A stretch of 21,857 nucleotides of DNA from assembly GCF_012524165.2 (NCBI RefSeq), contig NZ_JABACJ020000040.1, forward strand, positions 1 through 21,857, given 5' to 3'. The notes under the pieces are model-generated. The model had not been told where the DNA came from, ran no database searches, and saw only the letters and a list, made by a program, of their open reading frames with translations. Source of the DNA: Faecalicatena faecalis (GTDB lineage: Bacteria; Bacillota; Clostridia; Lachnospirales; Lachnospiraceae). This document shows, piece after piece, positions 154 through 21,857 of the stretch. Both the position numbers and the translations under genes were made by a program. Position 1 is the first letter of the stretch, and every line of letters starts with the position of its first letter.

Positions 154-3100
154 ATGCAGAGCCTTGTTACTGCGGTTTCTGAAGTTCCGGTTTTTGACCG
201 AGAAACAGAAATCCTATATTCCGTGCTTGGCAGATTAAAGATTGACGACATTGCTCTCAGTTATGATGAAAACGGTCTTGTTGCAAGGGACAGCGATAAC
301 GAATGGCACGGTGCAGAGTTTTATCATTTCCTTGTTGATGAAGCCTTTGTATTTGAAGATGACGGTTCTGTACTTGGTATCAGACCTGACTTGCTTGATG
401 ACTTTAAGGCTTTATCCGAACACAACGGCGTTGAAGTTAAGGACAACCGAGAGAAAGAACCTGAGCCGATAGTTCCCGTTTGGGAGCAAAAGAAAAAGTC
501 AAAGGTAAAGAGCTTTGACCTCCATCCGGATATTCCTATGTCGGAGCGACACAACTTTGACCTTGCTAATAATCAGGTTGAGGAAGTGAACAAGAAAGAG
601 CGTTTTCACAGAAACTATGCGGCGATTAAGGTCTTGAAAGATTGTCAAAGCGAAAACCGTTTTGCGACACCCGATGAGCAGAAAATCTTGTCGAGATATG
701 TCGGTTGGGGCGGTATTCCCGAAGCCTTTGACGAACGAGCAGGAGCTTGGCATACAGAGTATGCAATGCTGAAAAACATCCTGACGCCGGAGGAATATGC
801 GTCGGCAAGAGAAAGCACCTTGACCTCCTTTTACACTCCCCCCGAAGTATCTACCGCCATTTATAAGGTGTTGGAACAGATGGGATTTCAGGAGGGCAAC
901 CTGCTTGAGCCGTCCTGCGGTATCGGTAACTTCATCGGTATGCTGCCTAAGTCAATGGAAAACGCAAAGGTTTACGGCGTGGAGCTTGATACCATTTCAG
1001 CCGGTATCGCTCAGCAGCTTTATCAGAAATCTTCTATTGCGGCACAGGGCTTTGAGAAAGTAAATGTTCCCGACAGTTTCTTTGACGGTGTTATCGGCAA
1101 TGTGCCTTTCGGAGACTTCAAAGTCTCCGACAAACGATATGACAAGTACAACTTCTTAATCCACGATTATTTCTTTGCAAAATCGCTTGACAAATTACGC
1201 CCCGGCGGTGTGATGGCTCTTGTGACAAGCAAAGGAACTATGGACAAGGAAAACTCCAATGTCCGAAAATATATCGCACAGAGGGCGGAGCTTCTCGGAG
1301 CAATCAGACTTCCGAATGACACCTTCAAAGGCAATGCCGGAACAGAGGTTGTATCCGATATTCTGTTTCTGCAAAAGCGAGACAGACTCATAGATATTGA
1401 GCCGGATTGGGTTCATCTTGACACCGATGAAAACGGTATAAGAATGAACTCATATTTTGTTCAGCACCCGGAAATGGTACTCGGCGAAATGAAAATGGCA
1501 AGCGGTCGCTTCGGACCGGAAGCAACCTGTGAACCGTTTGATAATGCCGACCTTTCGGAGCTTTTGAACGAAGCAGTCTCAAACATTCACGGAGAAATCT
1601 CCGAATACGAAGTTGCCGATGAGCTGGAGGAAGAAGATAATTCTATCCCGGCAGACCCTACGGTAAGGAACTTCTCTTATACGGTTTTGGACGATAAAAT
1701 CTATTTCCGTGAGAACTCCCGTATGTCCCCGGTGGAGGTATCTGCAACCGCCGAGAACCGTATCAAGGGTATGATGGGGATAAGGGATTGCGTCCGAAAC
1801 CTGATTGAACTGCAAACCGAGGATTACCCCGACAGCGAAATCAAACAGGCACAGGAAAAGCTGAACACTCTGTATGACAGCTTCACAAAGAAGTACGGAC
1901 TGATTAACAGCCGTGCCAATACTTCCGCTTTTTCCGACGACAGCTCCTATGCTCTGCTCTCTGCTCTTGAGGTCATCAACGAAGATGGTGAACTGGAACG
2001 CAAGGCGGATATGTTCTACAAAAGGACGATTAAACCGCACAAGCCGGTAACGGAGGTTGGCACCGCAGACGAAGCTCTCGCTGTCTCTATGGGTGAAAAA
2101 GCAGCCATTGATATGGAATATATGATGGAGTTGTCCGGTAAAAGCGAGGAAGAATTATTTTCTGACTTAAAGGGTGTTATCTTCTTAAATCCCCTTTATG
2201 AGTACGGCAATTCTTATGAGCCGAAGTATCTGATGGCAGACGAATATCTGTCGGGCAATGTTCGTGAGAAGCTGGCAACAGCCAAAAGGTCTGCGACTCT
2301 GTATCCCGAAGATTACACCGTCAATGTGCAGGCACTTGAAAAGGTGCAACCAAAGGATTTGACGGCAAGCGAGATTTCCGTAAGGCTCGGTGCGACTTGG
2401 ATACCGCCCGAAATATTCCAACAGTTTATGTTTGAGTTTCTCGACACCCCACGCTATGCACAATGGAATATCAAGGTTCACTACTCTCAGTTTACCGGCG
2501 AATGGAACATTGAGGGAAAGAGCTATGACCGTTCCAATGTAAAAGCGTACAGCACATACGGTACTTCCCGCATCAACGCATATAAGATAATTGAGGAAAC
2601 GCTGAACCTGAAAGATGTCCGTATCTTTGACTATATCGAAGATGAAGAAGGCAAAAAGAAAGCCGTCCTCAATAAAAAAGAAACGGCAATCGCACAGGCA
2701 AAGCAGGAACTCATAAAGCAGGGCTTTCAGGACTGGATATGGGCTGACCCTGCCCGCCGAGAAAAACTCACGAAGATGTATAACGAAAAGTTCAACAGCA
2801 TAAGACCCCGTGAGTACGACGGAAGCCACATTGTTTTCAACGGTATGAACCCAGAAATCGAACTCCGTGAACATCAGAAAAATGCGGTTGCACACATTCT
2901 GTACGGCGGCAACACGCTGTTGGCACACGCAGTCGGTGCAGGCAAAACTTTTGAGATGGTGGCGGCTGCTATGGAGTCCAAACGACTGGGACTTTGCAAT
3001 AAGTCGCTGTTCGTAGTGCCAAATCACTTAACCGAGCAATGGGCGGCGGAGTTCTTACAACTCTATCCGGCGGCGAATATTCTTGTGGCAACAAAGCGAG

Positions 3101-5334
3101 ATTTTGAGACAAAGAACCGTAAAAAGTTCTGTGGTCGAATTGCTACGGGAGATTATGACGCCGTAATCATCGGTCATTCTCAGTTTGAAAAAATACCGAT
3201 GTCCATTGAAAGACAGAGGGCAATTCTTGAGCAACAGCTTGAAGAACTGACAGACGGTATTATGGATTTGAAGCGAAACCGTGGAGAAAATTTCTCCATT
3301 AAACAGCTTGAAAAGTCTAAAAAGTCCGTGAAACAAAAGTTGGAAAAGCTCAACGACCAAAGCCGCAAGGATGATGTTGTTACCTTTGAAGAACTCGGTG
3401 TGGACAGGCTCTTTATCGACGAGAGCCATTATTACAAGAACCTCTATCTTTACACCAAAATGCGTAATGTGGGCGGTATCGCTCAAACGGAAGCACAGAA
3501 ATCCTCCGACCTGTTTATGAAGTGCCGATACCTTGACGAGCTTACAGGCGGTCGAGGAACGATATTTGCGACCGGTACTCCTATCTCAAACAGTATGGTG
3601 GAACTCTATACCATTCAGCGATACTTGCAGTACAACACGCTTGTGAAAAACAACTTGCAACACTTCGACTCGTGGGCAAGTACCTTCGGAGAGACTGTAA
3701 CAGCTGTTGAGCTTACCCCGGAGGGAACGGGTTACAGAGCGAAAACCCGCTTTGCAAAATTCTATAACCTTCCGGAGCTTATGGCGATGTTTAAGGAGGT
3801 TGCCGACATTAAGACGGCGGATATGCTGGAGCTGCCTGTGCCGGAAGCACACTTCCACAATGTTGCGGTCAAGCCGTCGGAAATGCAGAAAGAAATGGTT
3901 GCTTCCCTTGCGGAACGAGCCGAGAAAGTCCGTGGTGGCGGTGTGGATTCGAGTGTAGATAATATGCTCAAAATCACAAACGACGGCAGAAAGTTGGCTC
4001 TTGACCAGCGTATGCTCAACGATATGCTGCCTGATTTTGAGGGTAGTAAAATCAACGCCTGCGTCGATAACATCTACCGTATTTGGGAGGAAACAGCCGA
4101 TAAAAAATCGGCACAGCTTGTGTTCTGCGACCTCTCAACACCAAAGAACGACGGCACATTCTCGGTATATAACGACATCAGAAAGAAGCTCATAGAGCGT
4201 GGTGTCCCCGAAAGCGAAGTCCGCTTTATCCACGAAGCAGATACCGATGTGAAGAAGAAAGAACTGTTCCAAAAGACCCGCAAGGGCGAGGTCAGAGTGC
4301 TTCTCGGCTCTACGCAGAAGATGGGAGCCGGCACGAATGTTCAGGACAGACTTATCGCACTTCACGATGTGGATTGTCCGTGGAGACCGTCAGACTTGGA
4401 GCAGCGTTCCGGTCGAATTATCCGTCAGGGCAACTCAAACCCTGATGTAGATATTTACCGCTATGTAACGGAGCAGACCTTTGACGCATATCTCTATCAG
4501 CTTGTAGAGGGAAAGCAAAAGTTCGCCAGTCAGATTATGACGAGCAAATCTCCGGTGCGTTCTGCCGAGGATATTGATGAAACCGCTCTGTCCTATGCAG
4601 AAATTAAAATGCTTGCCACCGGCAATCCGTATATTAAGGAGAAGATGGATTTGGATATTCAAGTCCAAAAGCTGAAGCTCTTAAAATCCAACTTTCTCTC
4701 TGAAAGATATGCTTTGGAAGATAAGATAATCAAATATTATCCGCAGCGAATTACAGCTTTGGAAAACCGCATTGAAGGCTTGAAGCAAGATGTAGAAACT
4801 GCGAAACAGCACCCGAAACCAACGGACGACCGCTTTGTCGGTATGGAGGTTAAGGGTGTTTTTTATTCCGAAAAAGCCGACGCCGGTAAAGCAATCATTG
4901 AAGCCTGCAAACAGATGAACAGCCCCGACCCTATTCCTCTCGGCAAGTACAGAGGGTTTGAAACGGAGCTGCTTTTTAATACCGCAGAGCGAAATTATGA
5001 GGTTCGACTGAAAGGTGCAACAAGCAGAAATGTTCCTCTCGGCGATGACGCATACGGCAATATTATCCGTCTTGATAACGGAATTGAGAGATTTGCCGAG
5101 AGCTTGTCACTTGCGGAGAACGACCTTGAGAACACCAAAAATCAGTTGGAAACCGCAAAGAAAGAAGTCCAAAAACCATTTATCCAAGAGGAAGAATTGA
5201 AAACAAAGCTTGCCCGACTGGACGAGCTGAATATTCTGCTCAATATGGATAAGCGAGAAAACGAAATTGTCGGCGGCGAACCCGATGAGGGCGAAGTGCC
5301 GAACACACGAAAGGAGAAAACCTATGAACGATAA
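154..5334 (+). CDS. Large polyvalent protein: an N6-adenine DNA methyltransferase fused to an SNF2/DEAD-like helicase (DarB-like anti-restriction candidate)
   Basis: The ORF is 1726 aa. AdoMet motif I is LEPSCGIGNFIG (nt 904-939) and catalytic motif IV is NVPF (nt 1099-1110). Helicase Walker A is GAGKT (nt 2935-2949), the DESH box is at nt 3418-3429, motif III is GTPISNS and motif VI is QRSGRIIRQGN. The C-terminal tail is coiled-coil rich. There is no clear SD before ATG154, so the start is uncertain. Confidence 0.9.
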   Translation: MQSLVTAVSEVPVFDRETEILYSVLGRLKIDDIALSYDENGLVARDSDNEWHGAEFYHFLVDEAFVFEDDGSVLGIRPDLLDDFKALSEHNGVEVKDNREKEPEPIVPVWEQKKKSKVKSFDLHPDIPMSERHNFDLANNQVEEVNKKERFHRNYAAIKVLKDCQSENRFATPDEQKILSRYVGWGGIPEAFDERAGAWHTEYAMLKNILTPEEYASARESTLTSFYTPPEVSTAIYKVLEQMGFQEGNLLEPSCGIGNFIGMLPKSMENAKVYGVELDTISAGIAQQLYQKSSIAAQGFEKVNVPDSFFDGVIGNVPFGDFKVSDKRYDKYNFLIHDYFFAKSLDKLRPGGVMALVTSKGTMDKENSNVRKYIAQRAELLGAIRLPNDTFKGNAGTEVVSDILFLQKRDRLIDIEPDWVHLDTDENGIRMNSYFVQHPEMVLGEMKMASGRFGPEATCEPFDNADLSELLNEAVSNIHGEISEYEVADELEEEDNSIPADPTVRNFSYTVLDDKIYFRENSRMSPVEVSATAENRIKGMMGIRDCVRNLIELQTEDYPDSEIKQAQEKLNTLYDSFTKKYGLINSRANTSAFSDDSSYALLSALEVINEDGELERKADMFYKRTIKPHKPVTEVGTADEALAVSMGEKAAIDMEYMMELSGKSEEELFSDLKGVIFLNPLYEYGNSYEPKYLMADEYLSGNVREKLATAKRSATLYPEDYTVNVQALEKVQPKDLTASEISVRLGATWIPPEIFQQFMFEFLDTPRYAQWNIKVHYSQFTGEWNIEGKSYDRSNVKAYSTYGTSRINAYKIIEETLNLKDVRIFDYIEDEEGKKKAVLNKKETAIAQAKQELIKQGFQDWIWADPARREKLTKMYNEKFNSIRPREYDGSHIVFNGMNPEIELREHQKNAVAHILYGGNTLLAHAVGAGKTFEMVAAAMESKRLGLCNKSLFVVPNHLTEQWAAEFLQLYPAANILVATKRDFETKNRKKFCGRIATGDYDAVIIGHSQFEKIPMSIERQRAILEQQLEELTDGIMDLKRNRGENFSIKQLEKSKKSVKQKLEKLNDQSRKDDVVTFEELGVDRLFIDESHYYKNLYLYTKMRNVGGIAQTEAQKSSDLFMKCRYLDELTGGRGTIFATGTPISNSMVELYTIQRYLQYNTLVKNNLQHFDSWASTFGETVTAVELTPEGTGYRAKTRFAKFYNLPELMAMFKEVADIKTADMLELPVPEAHFHNVAVKPSEMQKEMVASLAERAEKVRGGGVDSSVDNMLKITNDGRKLALDQRMLNDMLPDFEGSKINACVDNIYRIWEETADKKSAQLVFCDLSTPKNDGTFSVYNDIRKKLIERGVPESEVRFIHEADTDVKKKELFQKTRKGEVRVLLGSTQKMGAGTNVQDRLIALHDVDCPWRPSDLEQRSGRIIRQGNSNPDVDIYRYVTEQTFDAYLYQLVEGKQKFASQIMTSKSPVRSAEDIDETALSYAEIKMLATGNPYIKEKMDLDIQVQKLKLLKSNFLSERYALEDKIIKYYPQRITALENRIEGLKQDVETAKQHPKPTDDRFVGMEVKGVFYSEKADAGKAIIEACKQMNSPDPIPLGKYRGFETELLFNTAERNYEVRLKGATSRNVPLGDDAYGNIIRLDNGIERFAESLSLAENDLENTKNQLETAKKEVQKPFIQEEELKTKLARLDELNILLNMDKRENEIVGGEPDEGEVPNTRKEKTYER

Positions 5335-19079: not shown

Positions 19080-20789
19080 ATGGCTGATATTAAAACGAAA
19101 GACAATGCAAAAGGTACGATACGAACCATAGATAAGGCTGCCGTTGCAACCCAACGAATGAAGCAGGCGTATATCGCAACAAAAGAAAAGGCGGAACGGT
19201 CGGTAAATGCCAACAGCAGTTCTGCCGAGGAATATGCTTCCGATAAGCTGGAAAGCGGTATTGACGAGATGGTTCACGATGGTGCTTATGCGTTCGATAA
19301 GGCTGGACGAAAAGGACTTGAAACCACAAAAGAGAATATCCGCACCGCAAAGGACGGTATTCAGCGTTTCAAGCAACAACGAGCCGAGCAGTCTTTGAGA
19401 AAACAGGCTTCGCAGAATACAAGCTCGGCAATTAAGACTGTCGATAAGGCGGAAAAGACCATTAAGCAGTCGGCTACTTCCTCCGGAAAGAAAACCATTA
19501 AGTTTGCCGGGAAAGAAGCAACGAAAACCGCACAGAAATCGGTTAAGACGGCTGAACAGACTGCAAAAACGGCGATAAAGACAAGCCAGCAAGCGGCGAA
19601 AGCGGCACAGAAAACAGCTCAGGCGACGGTTAAGGCTTCGCAGAAAGCGGCACAGGCGGCAAAAGCTACCGCCAAAGCAACAGCCGCTACGATTAAAGCC
19701 GCAGCCAAAGCCACCGTTGCCGCAGTAAAAGCAATCATAGCGGCGGTAAAAGGTTTGATAGCCGCTATCGCTGCCGGCGGTTGGGTTGCGGTGGTAGTAA
19801 TTATTGTGCTATGTCTTGTAGCCTTGATTGCGGGTTCTGTGTTTGGTATCTTCTTTTCGGGAGAGGATTCCGGCACGGGAATGTCAATGCAGACAGTCGT
19901 TCAGGAAATCAATCAGGAATATGATGACCGATTGGAACAGAAAAAGAACTCTGTAAGCTATGATGTGCTTGAAATGAGCGGAAGCCGAGCTGTGTGGAAA
20001 GAGGTTCTTGCGGTCTATTCTGTTAAAGTAAATACCGACCCCGACAATCCGATGGAGGTTGCCACGGTTGATGAAACCAAGAAACAGCTACTGTCGGATA
20101 TTTTTTGGGAGATGAACGATATTTCTTCCCGAACGGAAACGAAAACCCATACCGAAATCGAGGAAAGCGACGACGGACACGGCAACATCGTACAGACCGA
20201 AACCACAGTAACCGAAACTTTTTTGTATATCACGGTATCGCACAAGACCGTAGATGAAATGGCGGCTATGTACGGCTTTAATCAGGAGCAGAAAGATTAT
20301 CTTGCCGAGCTGTTGCAGGACGAAAACAATCAGCTATGGTCACAGGTGCTTTACGGTATCGGATACAGCGACGACCAAATCGTAACGGTCGCTCTGTCTC
20401 AGGTGGGTAATGTAGGCGGTCAGCCTTACTGGTCTTGGTACGGCTTTGACTCCCGTGTAGAGTGGTGTGCCTGCTTTGTTTCTTGGTGTGCCAACGAGTG
20501 CGGATATATCGACGCCGGTATTATTCCGAAGTATGCCGGTTGCGTAAACGGCGTTCAATGGTTCAGAGACCGAGGACAATGGGCAGACGGTTCGTATGAG
20601 CCTTCGCCCGGTACAATCATCTTCTTTGACTGGGAGGGCGACGGTGTGACAGACCACACCGGTATCGTTCAGAGATGCGAGAACGGTACAGTCTATACCG
20701 TTGAGGGCAACTCAGGCGACACTTGCAGAACCAAAACATACCCTGTCGGAAGCTCTGTTATCTACGGATACGGTATTCCGGCATATTAA
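19080..20789 (+). CDS. Membrane-anchored cell-wall hydrolase with a C-terminal CHAP domain (VirB1 functional analogue)
   Basis: GGAAGGAGGG lies upstream of the ATG. An Ala/Lys-rich low-complexity region runs to about aa 225, followed by a TM helix ([27 protein letters not shown]). The C-terminal CHAP-like Cys is in [10 protein letters not shown] and the His is in DHTGIV. Confidence 0.85.
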
Positions 20790-20793
20790 AAAT

Positions 20794-20819
20794 GATGGCT
20801 GCTCGTTTGAGTAGCCATC
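20794..20819. terminator. Hairpin between convergent genes; a better terminator for the minus-strand module and possibly bidirectional
   Basis: GATGGCTGCTC (20794-20804), loop GTTT, GAGTAGCCATC (20809-20819), giving 11 bp with one G-U pair. On the minus strand it is followed by ATTTTTAAT. On the plus strand it is followed by AAGTACATTT, a poor U-tract. Confidence 0.6.
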
Positions 20820-20827
20820 AAGTACAT

Positions 20828-21154
20828 TTACCATAATACTGTTGGTTTTGGAATTTCAAGGTTTGATTTTATGATTTGAAAATAGTATATCGAATTTTCG
20901 GTTGTTATCATCAATATGCCATCTTTAATTTCGTAGTCATCATTAGATGATACCATTCCTTTAGAAAATACCACTTCGCTGTCGATAATAGGATTCCATT
21001 GAAAATACTGTTTATGAACAGATTTAATGATATAAAGTACACCTATTAGACCGAGATATTTTTTTCGCCAACTATCGGTTTGCGATTCACCTGATTTTGA
21101 TGTGGAACATTTATAAGTCACAATGTATTCTTTCAATATAGCTTTATTTTTCAT
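20828..21154 (-). CDS. Hypothetical protein (108 aa), AT-rich cargo
   Basis: It is the only long ORF in the AT-rich block. Its ATG (21154-21152) is embedded in the last codons of the upstream ORF (AATGAAAAATAA). There is no SD, so translation would need coupling. I recognise no motif. Confidence 0.5.
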   Translation of the reverse strand: MKNKAILKEYIVTYKCSTSKSGESQTDSWRKKYLGLIGVLYIIKSVHKQYFQWNPIIDSEVVFSKGMVSSNDDYEIKDGILMITTENSIYYFQIIKSNLEIPKPTVLW

Positions 21155-21368
21155 TGAATAACAAATAGGAATAATTCATTTTCTTTCTTGAAATTAAGTT
21201 AATTAAAGCTGAGCGTTGTTCCACTGCCCAAGAAAACCAATTATTCAATATCTTCTTTGCAGTCGGTCTATAAATAGTACCACCAATAGCTTTTTCAAAA
21301 TCAAGAATCATTTGCTCAAAAGCCTCGTCGTATGTTACTTCATATGTATATTTATCATATCTCTTAGG
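21144..21368 (-). pseudogene. Short ORF overlapping the 108-aa gene: either a 55-aa protein from ATG21311 or the 3' remnant (74 codons) of a gene truncated at the composition junction
   Basis: This is my own minus-strand translation: PKRYDKYTYEVTYDEAFEQMILDFEKAIGGTIYRPTAKKILNNWFSWAVEQRSALINLISRKKMNYSYLLFNEK*. The frame is open from just after TGA (21371-21369) down to TAA (21146-21144). There is no ATG/GTG/TTG in the first 19 codons. GAGG lies 11 nt upstream of ATG21311, which is marginal spacing. Confidence 0.35.
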
Positions 21369-21372
21369 TCAG

Positions 21373-21857
21373 TTTACAAGGAACTACACGCAGACCGTGA
21401 AACGGGCTGCTGACAACAAACGGCGGTATGCTCCCGGAGAGGGCAGCATACCGCCTGTTTTGTTGTCCGGGGTTTCCAAAGGGGTGCCCCCTTTGGCACA
21501 CGACTTTGCTTGCAAAGTGTAGTGTGTTATACCTGCTGGCGTGGCTGACGGGGGAAACGGGGTGCGGTGCTTCTTGCGCCCCGTTTGCTCCGGCAGGAAA
21601 ACAGGCTGAATTTTTGCGAATGGGAATGAGCAAAAAATCGGCCTGTTTTCAGAGAACGGCGGCAGGTATATGAAAGCCCCCGTCCCTCGTCCTACGCTCC
21701 GACTTGTGGACAAAGTGTCCCGAAGTTGTGGCCACACTCCCGGAAAAGTAGCAGGACAGCGGGCAACCGTCAAGGCTGAAATGAACGGGGTTACACCCGG
21801 CCTTGACCGCCGCCCGCCGCCCCGCTGGATGGGTGGACAAGGCGGCCAATCCCTCAA
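21373..21857. other. GC-rich, ORF-poor, hairpin-dense region of unknown identity, cut by the window edge; a structured RNA or ssDNA element is suspected
   Basis: At least six non-trivial stem-loops are listed in the findings. The ORF-track ORFs here (21384..21857-, 21428..21673+, 21649..21849-) have Pro/Arg/Gly/Cys-rich junk composition and no SD. Composition jumps abruptly from the AT-rich block at about 21370. Confidence 0.5.
21413..21466. terminator. Strong A-tract / hairpin / T-tract element, shaped like a bidirectional intrinsic terminator
   Basis: The stem is GGCGGTATGCT-CCC (21422-21435), loop GGAGA, GGG-C-AGCATACCGCC (21441-21455), giving 14 bp with one bulged C. It is flanked by ACAACAAA (21413-21420) and TTTGTTGT (21459-21466). 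Confidence 0.5.

Follow-up and report, generated by a model that had tools for sequence, protein, structure and literature searches.

A predicted origin of transfer and an adjoining strand-specific DNA junction at the left end of an integrative and mobilizable element in Faecalicatena faecalis

The locus

The DNA considered here is a stretch of 21,857 nucleotides (nt) from Faecalicatena faecalis (contig NZ_JABACJ020000040.1 of assembly GCF_012524165.2, positions 1 to 21,857), called the window below, and the subject is its right-hand end, 21364-21857, which is the left-terminal non-coding part of an integrative and mobilizable element (IME) of the MOBV1 relaxase and large serine recombinase kind. 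The window up to about 20828 is occupied by the conjugation module of a Firmicute conjugative element, with genes for a giant SNF2/methylase protein, a DUF3991-Toprim protein, NikA/MobC, a PF03432 relaxase and a coupling protein, and for TrbC-like and TrbL-like proteins, PrgI, a VirB4-type ATPase, a sortase and a CHAP hydrolase; it matches the Tn1549-family backbone reported from gut Clostridia (PMC12084326). The IME is inserted beside this module and carries aadE as its aminoglycoside resistance cargo, a minus-strand gene whose stop codon lies 88 nt past the window end. Read from the left, the region holds the element end, a long hairpin (H1), an origin of transfer (oriT) with two hairpins (H2 and H3) and a predicted nick, a three-way junction made of a helix (P0) and two hairpins (H4 and H5), and a last long hairpin (H6).

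That an IME terminus and a MOBV1 oriT are combined in this region can be said with high confidence. The best explanation of the whole, in which terminus and oriT are joined by a junction that would act as a priming site resembling a single-strand origin (sso), is held to be reasonably probable. How an incoming single strand is made double-stranded has been worked out for very few integrated mobilizable elements, ICEBs1 being the main case, and the element family is widespread, with clinically relevant resistance cargo: the oriT pattern occurs in at least 120 representative species genomes, a scan of such genomes with the H3 pattern having returned at least 120 loci, mostly in gut Clostridia.

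The region differs from its surroundings in composition and in folding. The GC content of 21373-21857 is 0.58, compared to 0.30 over the 535 nt on its left and 0.46 for the remaining window, and the predicted fold of these nucleotides as single-stranded DNA (ssDNA) has an energy of -137.4 kcal/mol, where dinucleotide shuffles gave -86.0 +/- 4.9, with z-scores of -10.5 for the plus strand and -7.7 for the minus strand. A first-pass annotation, made by a model from the letters, had described a hairpin-dense stretch with no credible protein, and both descriptions hold: H1, H2, H3, H5 and the core of H6 were recovered where it had placed them, and the z-score of -10.5 bears out the density. The plus-strand open reading frame from ATG 21670 runs past the window end and reaches 108 amino acids (aa) in a homologous contig (L040), while in most homologues it either meets a stop or frameshift after 9-52 codons or has lost the ATG; it is not a gene. 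The 'hypothetical protein' entries of two RefSeq plasmid records (WP_071986737.1 / WP_085837480.1; L003 6274-6600 and L006 4007-4222), which cover this conserved backbone on the strand opposite the aadE 3' end, are probably spurious, since the frame is not conserved across homologues.

The hairpin density and the 108-aa frame called a hypothetical protein in these two records could also be taken to indicate a structured non-coding RNA (a group II intron domain, an IscB/HEARO omega RNA or a riboswitch-like leader) or a decayed pseudogene, and the 5' part of a group II intron and an omega RNA or other large ornate RNA were indeed among the classes first proposed. However, the Rfam search of the region matched no family at the gathering score, and with E up to 10 gave chance microRNA/snoRNA-type matches alone. 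No gene for a reverse transcriptase, IscB or TnpB was found next to the region in the homologous loci; the adjacent gene is instead aadE, on the opposite strand. The intron was rejected on these two grounds, and the omega RNA or ornate RNA also because the two halves of the region fold on opposite strands. With the reading frame interrupted in most homologues as well, this whole group of explanations is scarcely credible.

The end of the element

The boundary of the element emerged from comparison with homologous loci. Among the matches listed, 41 of 125 loci, from different species, start identically (TTAGGTCAGTTTACAAGG...) at window position 21364 with unrelated flanks, the common start of homology reading TTAGGTCAG / TTAGGTCAGTTTACAAGGAACTACACGCAG after unrelated DNA. 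Contig L040 is 100% identical over 21362-21857 and has a different left flank. The region does begin near 21373, as first annotated, but the real boundary of the mobile element lies 9 nt further left, at 21364. The same comparison disposes of the proposal that the region is a leader or attenuator for the minus-strand module starting at ATG 21311, as this module lies beyond the boundary, and in 40 other insertions among the matches listed, the 100% identical contig included, unrelated DNA stands in its place. A loose TGATATTTA-like motif is common to the left flanks, which is what a relaxed target choice of the recombinase predicts.

The left junction, TTAGGT (21364-21369, plus strand), holds the probable crossover core of attL, which, to judge from the sequence, is probably TA. 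It is followed by a terminal inverted repeat, CAGTTTACAAGGAACTACACGCAG (21370-21393, plus strand), taken as a serine-recombinase half-site (P' arm). The reverse complement of this repeat, CTGTGTAGTCCCTTGTAAACTG, closes the element just after the gene for a 503-aa serine recombinase in L013, L024 and L107, where the right ends read ...AAACTGTA and then the flank. These three complete copies measure 6.6, 7.0 and 7.5 kb and end with ...CTGTGTAGTCCCTTGTAAACTGTA, which repeats the left end in inverted orientation, and an intact copy at the present locus is predicted to finish with ...CCCTTGTAAACTGTA, about 6-8 kb from 21364. The 503-aa recombinase gene precedes the right end in L124 as well, and upstream of the recombinase gene, the complete relatives carry a Mob_Pre relaxase gene; in L002 the gene order includes Cys_rich_VLP, RepA_N and Mob_Pre (PF01076, E = 1e-50) and then a serine recombinase. 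In at least 20 homologous elements the Mob_Pre gene is found 3.4-4.8 kb past the nick, and the window ends 331 nt past it.

Tn4451 is the prototype of the MOBV1/serine-recombinase IMEs (PMC5704250). Like the present family, Tn4451, Tn4453 and the MOBV1 IMEs of Faecalibacterium (PMC12084326) are small and have a Mob_Pre relaxase, a large serine recombinase and resistance cargo; Tn4451-like IMEs also have short att sites and a low target specificity, and are found in or next to conjugative elements. Defined ends with recombinase half-sites, in different genomic contexts, were found for the present family too. Compared by description, the gene order differs, in that the oriT is placed at the far end from the relaxase gene and not directly upstream of it. 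Neither the terminal repeat CAGTTTACAAGGRACTACAC nor a structured leading region was found described in the literature consulted, and a search of plasmids for the empty insertion site returned none.

In most loci the first gene past the region is on the minus strand and faces it. In L040, aadE occupies nick+419 to nick+1300 on the minus strand, and the last nucleotides of the window (21827-21857) are the remainder of a conserved backbone that continues for the 88 nt up to the aadE stop codon. A blastn search against plasmids found the region in plasmids of Subdoligranulum, Pusillibacter, Lactobacillus amylovorus and Campylobacter jejuni, each time directly 3' of a minus-strand aadE, and matched only relatives of the oriT. 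The idea that the region is simply the 3' untranslated region of aadE was ruled out, since the same backbone runs on in elements with other cargo, for example a mef-like MFS gene on the plus strand. With an exact boundary and a predicted nick site at hand, the common and so far unannotated elements that carry aadE can be annotated.

The origin of transfer

The oriT consists of two adjacent plus-strand hairpins and the nick region. H2 (21476-21496), its upstream part, is a 9-bp hairpin formed by CCAAAGGGG/CCCCTTTGG, and H3 (21497-21526), with a stem of 5+6 bp, is the inverted repeat of the oriT, analogous to IR1/IR3 of plasmid pMV158, with its 3' arm ending at the predicted nick. H2 and H3 fold together with a z-score of -4.1. 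The nucleotides 21515-21532 read AAGTGTAGTGTG/TTATAC, and 13 of 13 nt of TAGTGTG/TTATAC are as in the pMV158 oriT, for which the sequences quoted in PMC5863519 were used. In that plasmid AAGtaTAGTGTG is the contact of the relaxase MobM, which cleaves the transferred strand at TGTG/TTATAC (PMC5863519). Two marks of a MOBV1 oriT, namely the sequence of the nick region with the relaxase contact (AAG..TAGTGTG) and an inverted repeat with its 3' arm at the nick, were thus found, and by identity with pMV158 the cut is predicted between G21526 and T21527 of the plus strand. A nick at this position would make the plus strand the transferred one, with 21527 and onwards the first to enter the recipient.

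The block of H2 and H3 is conserved upstream of mobV in pBMB5201 of Bacillus thuringiensis (L004 2604-2676) and in most loci, the motif standing 48-60 nt upstream of mobV in pBMB5201, L028 and L119; across the loci the stems are conserved and the loops differ. In related elements the relaxase family is likewise Mob_Pre (PF01076), as for pMV158. In pMV158, however, mobM and its promoters lie directly past the nick and a short IR2 spans it, whereas here the relaxase gene is 3.3-4.7 kb away at the other end (nick+3.4 to nick+4.8 kb), as seen in related loci, and the element adds a conserved upstream hairpin, H2, and a 145-nt three-way junction past the nick. Both MOBV1 origins and serine-recombinase IMEs have been described before, and by the features tested the region is a member of both groups. 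The placing of the oriT at the far end from the relaxase gene, the conserved H2 and, above all, the strand-specific junction anchored at the nick in many sequence-unrelated versions appear to be undescribed in the literature consulted.

Homology between the elements breaks repeatedly, in many loci, at 21404, 21468-21470, 21489-21494 and 21532, the most striking break being that at nick+6 (21532), and one core of H1, oriT and junction was found joined to two left ends and two serine recombinases (503 aa and 551 aa). Recurrent breakpoints and swapped ends suggest an exchange of modules at the nick, possibly mediated by the relaxase.

An H3-like oriT was also seen without any mob gene, on the 3.4-kb plasmid pRGI00613 of uncultured origin (L005, about 3164-3340), with a TAGCGT motif like the CS-6 of ssoA-type origins about 130 nt downstream on the same strand. 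This plasmid appears to couple an orphan oriT with an ssoA-like site.

The three-way junction at the nick

The 5' strand of P0 (21528-21542, plus strand) begins 1 nt past the predicted nick and pairs with ACGGCGGCAGGTATA (21656-21670), and the helix encloses H4 (21545-21596), a branched or bulged hairpin that makes the first arm, and H5 (21597-21650), a hairpin of about 21 bp that makes the second, to give a three-way junction of 145 nt on the plus strand. The first-pass annotation had drawn H4 as a nested hairpin with an outer stem of CCTGCTGG/CCGGCAGG; the hairpin inside 21545-21596 stands, but comparison backs the pairing of 21528-21542 with 21656-21670 in place of that outer stem.

The evidence for this fold is mainly comparative. 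Of the 71 unique sequences that follow an oriT of this type, 56 contain P0, which comes in at least nine sequence versions that all begin 1 nt past the predicted nick; shuffling gave p <= 0.005 for most versions, and such mismatches as occur are mainly T.G wobbles of the plus strand. H4 comes in three types (A, B and C) whose stems are unrelated in sequence but adopt one shape, and H5 is built from at least five different stem sequences on a base, GGAAAACAGG...CTGKTTTC, that is conserved throughout. Changes on both sides of a pair were seen at 10 of the 15 pairs of P0, at 18/19 in H4 (helices 2 and 3), at 16/17 in H5 (helix 4) and, counting all pairs of the junction, at 46 of 54. In the alignment from which the pairs were counted, 90.2% of the cells pair, as against 74.7% after shuffling of columns (0 of 500 shuffles reach 90.2%) and 38-43% with the partners slid, percentages that are inflated by the fitting of that alignment to the structure; the comparison of the H4 and H5 sequence types and the survey of P0 (56/71) are independent of it. 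With MAFFT and RNAalifold alone, P0 and H5 came out but H4 was missed, its three sequence types being misaligned; a covariance model was used instead, which was built from 28 sequences and gave 74 matches in 100 sources, distant families included.

The junction is also specific for one strand. On the plus strand its fold has a z-score of -12.4, on the minus strand one of -7.5. In 38 of 38 variants the plus strand gives the better fold, with a margin of 12 kcal/mol with DNA parameters or 17 kcal/mol with RNA parameters, and the same variants contain 174 G.T pairs on the plus strand versus 52 on the minus strand. Small rolling-circle plasmids with the same type of oriT are without it and have mobV directly past the nick, so that the junction must be dispensable for nicking and specific to integrated elements. 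A consensus promoter scan found no plus-strand promoter upstream of the junction, and RNA starting from a pMV158-like promoter would miss the 5' strand of P0; a role at the DNA level, on the transferred strand, is therefore favoured. Strong conservation and strand specificity go together in the structure by the nick, which is open to cloning and testing.

Two smaller features lie to the right of the junction. A C-rich unpaired motif, TATATGAAAGCCCCCGTCCCTCGTCC (21667-21692, plus strand), is nearly invariant in type A and type B elements and contains the ATG of the non-conserved reading frame. A small hairpin, H5b (21701-21727), has a GGACA/TGTCC core with compensatory variants GGGAC/GTCCC and GGGCC/GGCCC, and is weak alone (z from -1.1 to -2.6).

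The same nick-anchored junction was observed with a second oriT family (TTACACCCTGTAAACGC...; the L015 group, about 25 loci). In the L015 group, Mob_Pre is upstream and divergent (nick-302 to nick-1264) in about 25 species, and in L022, of the same family, it is downstream on the same strand (nick+231), so the orientation of the oriT module to the relaxase gene seems to be reversed between the two. In L019 a second and weaker copy of the junction (748-910, minus strand; 33 bits by the covariance model) and another at the end of the locus were seen, and L019 may represent two elements in tandem. In a C. jejuni plasmid (L010, about 4095-4148), the interior of H5 is inverted relative to the window with the flanks unchanged, a palindrome flip such as template switching or cruciform processing would be expected to produce.

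Terminator-like hairpins

H1 (21412-21467) is a long hairpin flanked by an A-tract and a T-tract, which folds equally on both strands (z -6.7 on the plus and -6.9 on the minus strand) and has T-rich tails on both; in its homologues the stem is made of quite other sequences, while hairpin and T-tails persist. Placed between the element end and the oriT, H1 has the look of an intrinsic terminator or insulator that works in both directions.

H6 (21750-21826, core 21769-21807) is a hairpin of 26-27 bp followed by CUACUUUUCC on the minus strand, and it is on this strand that it folds: for 21745-21857 the minus-strand z-scores are -3.4 with DNA and -4.7 with RNA parameters, versus -0.65 and -1.7 on the plus strand. 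Over 61 pairs in 11 sequences, 540 Watson-Crick pairs, 103 G.T pairs and 24 mismatches were counted on the minus strand, and 540, 10 and 117, respectively, on the plus strand. At many positions what is an A.C in plus-strand notation, exchanged with G.C or A.T, is a G.U on the minus strand that swaps with G.C or A.U. H6 is a probable terminator of leftward cargo transcripts such as that of aadE.

Such hairpins lead to the question of whether all of them act at the RNA level, H1, H5 and H6 being terminators or insulators that keep the oriT and the att site untranscribed, with the shape of the junction incidental. The A- and T-tracts that flank both H1 and H5 on either side would fit, as would the minus-strand fold of H6 with its G.U-type variation and the CUACUUUUCC that follows, and the first gene beyond the region, which is usually on the minus strand and faces it. 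Against this stand the better plus-strand folding of P0, H4 and H5 in 38/38 variants, with plus-strand wobbles that are the commonest state at several pairs and would be A.C mismatches in leftward transcripts, and the lack of any plus-strand promoter found upstream. A terminator, furthermore, has no need of a long-range helix anchored at the nick, and a consensus terminator scan of 20700-21857 called none. This explanation of the hairpins is rather improbable.

A possible role in the recipient

The sequence of events that we propose begins with the Mob_Pre relaxase of the element, encoded several kb to the right beyond the window, which would bind H2 and H3 and nick the plus strand at G21526/T21527, after which this strand would enter the recipient with its 5' end first. 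There, P0, H4 and H5 would fold on the transferred strand as ssDNA, and the junction would serve as an sso-like site that primes synthesis of the complementary strand. Given the position of the junction just past the nick, conversion of the att site to double-stranded DNA would have to await recircularization of the strand. H1 would halt transcription in both directions and H6 would stop cargo transcripts before they reach the oriT.

The reading of the junction as a single-strand-origin-like priming site, taken for itself, is tentative. It is argued from the specificity for the transferred strand, from the absence of the junction in small rolling-circle plasmids that share the oriT type and have replication functions of their own, and from the tested precedent of ICEBs1, where sso1, with three stem-loops in about 200 bp, is found just downstream of oriT and the same argument on the timing of the att site was made (PMC4595007). 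Both sso1 and the ssoT of pTA1060 and pBAA1 are likewise three-helix DNA elements of 150-200 nt that act on one strand, and sso1 likewise stands just downstream of oriT in an integrated element (PMC4595007). There is, however, no similarity in sequence or model between them and the junction, which is placed at the nick itself, whereas sso1 comes after the relaxase gene.

Several results weigh against the favoured explanation. The ssoA motifs, as defined in PMC4598088, are absent from 21364-21857, neither the RSB (TTATGCCGAGAAAATTT-like, with up to 3 mismatches) nor CS-6 (TAGCGT) having been found. The junction model R1, run with filters off against the ssoT prototype pTA1060, reached 10.8 bits at best and 7.5 bits in the sso region, and no plasmid of the ssoT type was matched by blastn. 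No sigma-70-like -35/-10 pair was found on either strand of 21373-21857, although such a pair would be required by an Frpo-type promoter or by an origin dependent on RNA polymerase. The terminator scan mentioned above passed over H1, H5 and H6 alike, the relaxase and recombinase genes fall outside the window, and the pairing percentages of the structure-fitted alignment must be discounted for their inflation. Finally, the position of P0 exactly at the nick in every family fits the chemistry of the relaxase, or exposure of the nick, at least as well as it fits priming.

This last point is the core of the main rival, which sees the junction as an extended oriT without any priming, where the TATAC by the nick and its distal partner would control how the nick region is extruded or melted in the donor, or would aid the relaxase in rejoining the strand in the recipient. 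The beginning of P0 1 nt past the nick in all of the at least nine versions speaks for it, and so does pMV158, in which the alternative hairpins IR1, IR2 and IR3 around the nick form the switch for MobM (PMC5863519); an alternative pairing of TATAC with an upstream GTGTA, similar to IR2, is visible in the present sequence. On the other side, small plasmids in which the block of H2, H3 and nick is 81-93% identical have a MobV of their own and no junction, so this relaxase family does not need one. We regard the extended oriT as unlikely, though it comes before the other rivals.

Another candidate is an ssDNA promoter of the Frpo/ssi type, for early expression from the incoming strand. [quoted passage not shown] Transcription off the transferred strand would, however, head towards the nick, with about 100 nt left and no gene. 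Unlike Frpo/ssi, the junction has no -35/-10 hexamers on either strand and no correctly oriented gene downstream, it comes from another host phylum, and no sequence similarity was found among plasmids beyond the oriT relatives. Such a promoter is therefore very improbable.

Among the classes offered by the first-pass annotation, a single-strand origin or ssDNA promoter used after conjugative transfer came closest of the four: this is DNA for conjugation, whose largest structure shows specificity for the transferred strand, but membership in ssoA, ssoT or Frpo is not borne out, and the pMV158-type oriT in H2 and H3 and the end of an integrated element had been overlooked. More speculative, and doubtful at present, is the idea that the junction represents a new class of establishment element for transferred DNA, be it a new type of sso or a site for loading of a primosome. 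Equally doubtful is the corollary that such an element is common to many MOBV1 mobilizable families which move aadE, mef-like and ant(9) genes in gut Clostridia and into plasmids of Lactobacillus and Campylobacter.

The neighbouring DNA and a relic in Campylobacter

Between the CHAP hydrolase gene and the IME end lies an AT-rich stretch (20829-21363, GC 0.30) with two small minus-strand open reading frames, of 108 aa and 55 aa, that have no Pfam match. The closest relative of the conjugative backbone in the plasmid collection, a Monoglobus record (NZ_OY725736), is similar up to 20828 and diverges there, and for this reason the stretch looks like a separate cargo insertion.

The tet(O)/aadE plasmids of C. 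jejuni (L001 5001-5355; L010 4001-4355) keep a relic of the region, in which the equivalent of 21411-21553, that is H1, H2, the oriT and half of H4, has been deleted and 21410 is fused to 21554. The relic sits between a truncated tet(O) and aadE, an arrangement which implies that the Gram-positive resistance block arrived together with an IME end that has since lost its oriT.

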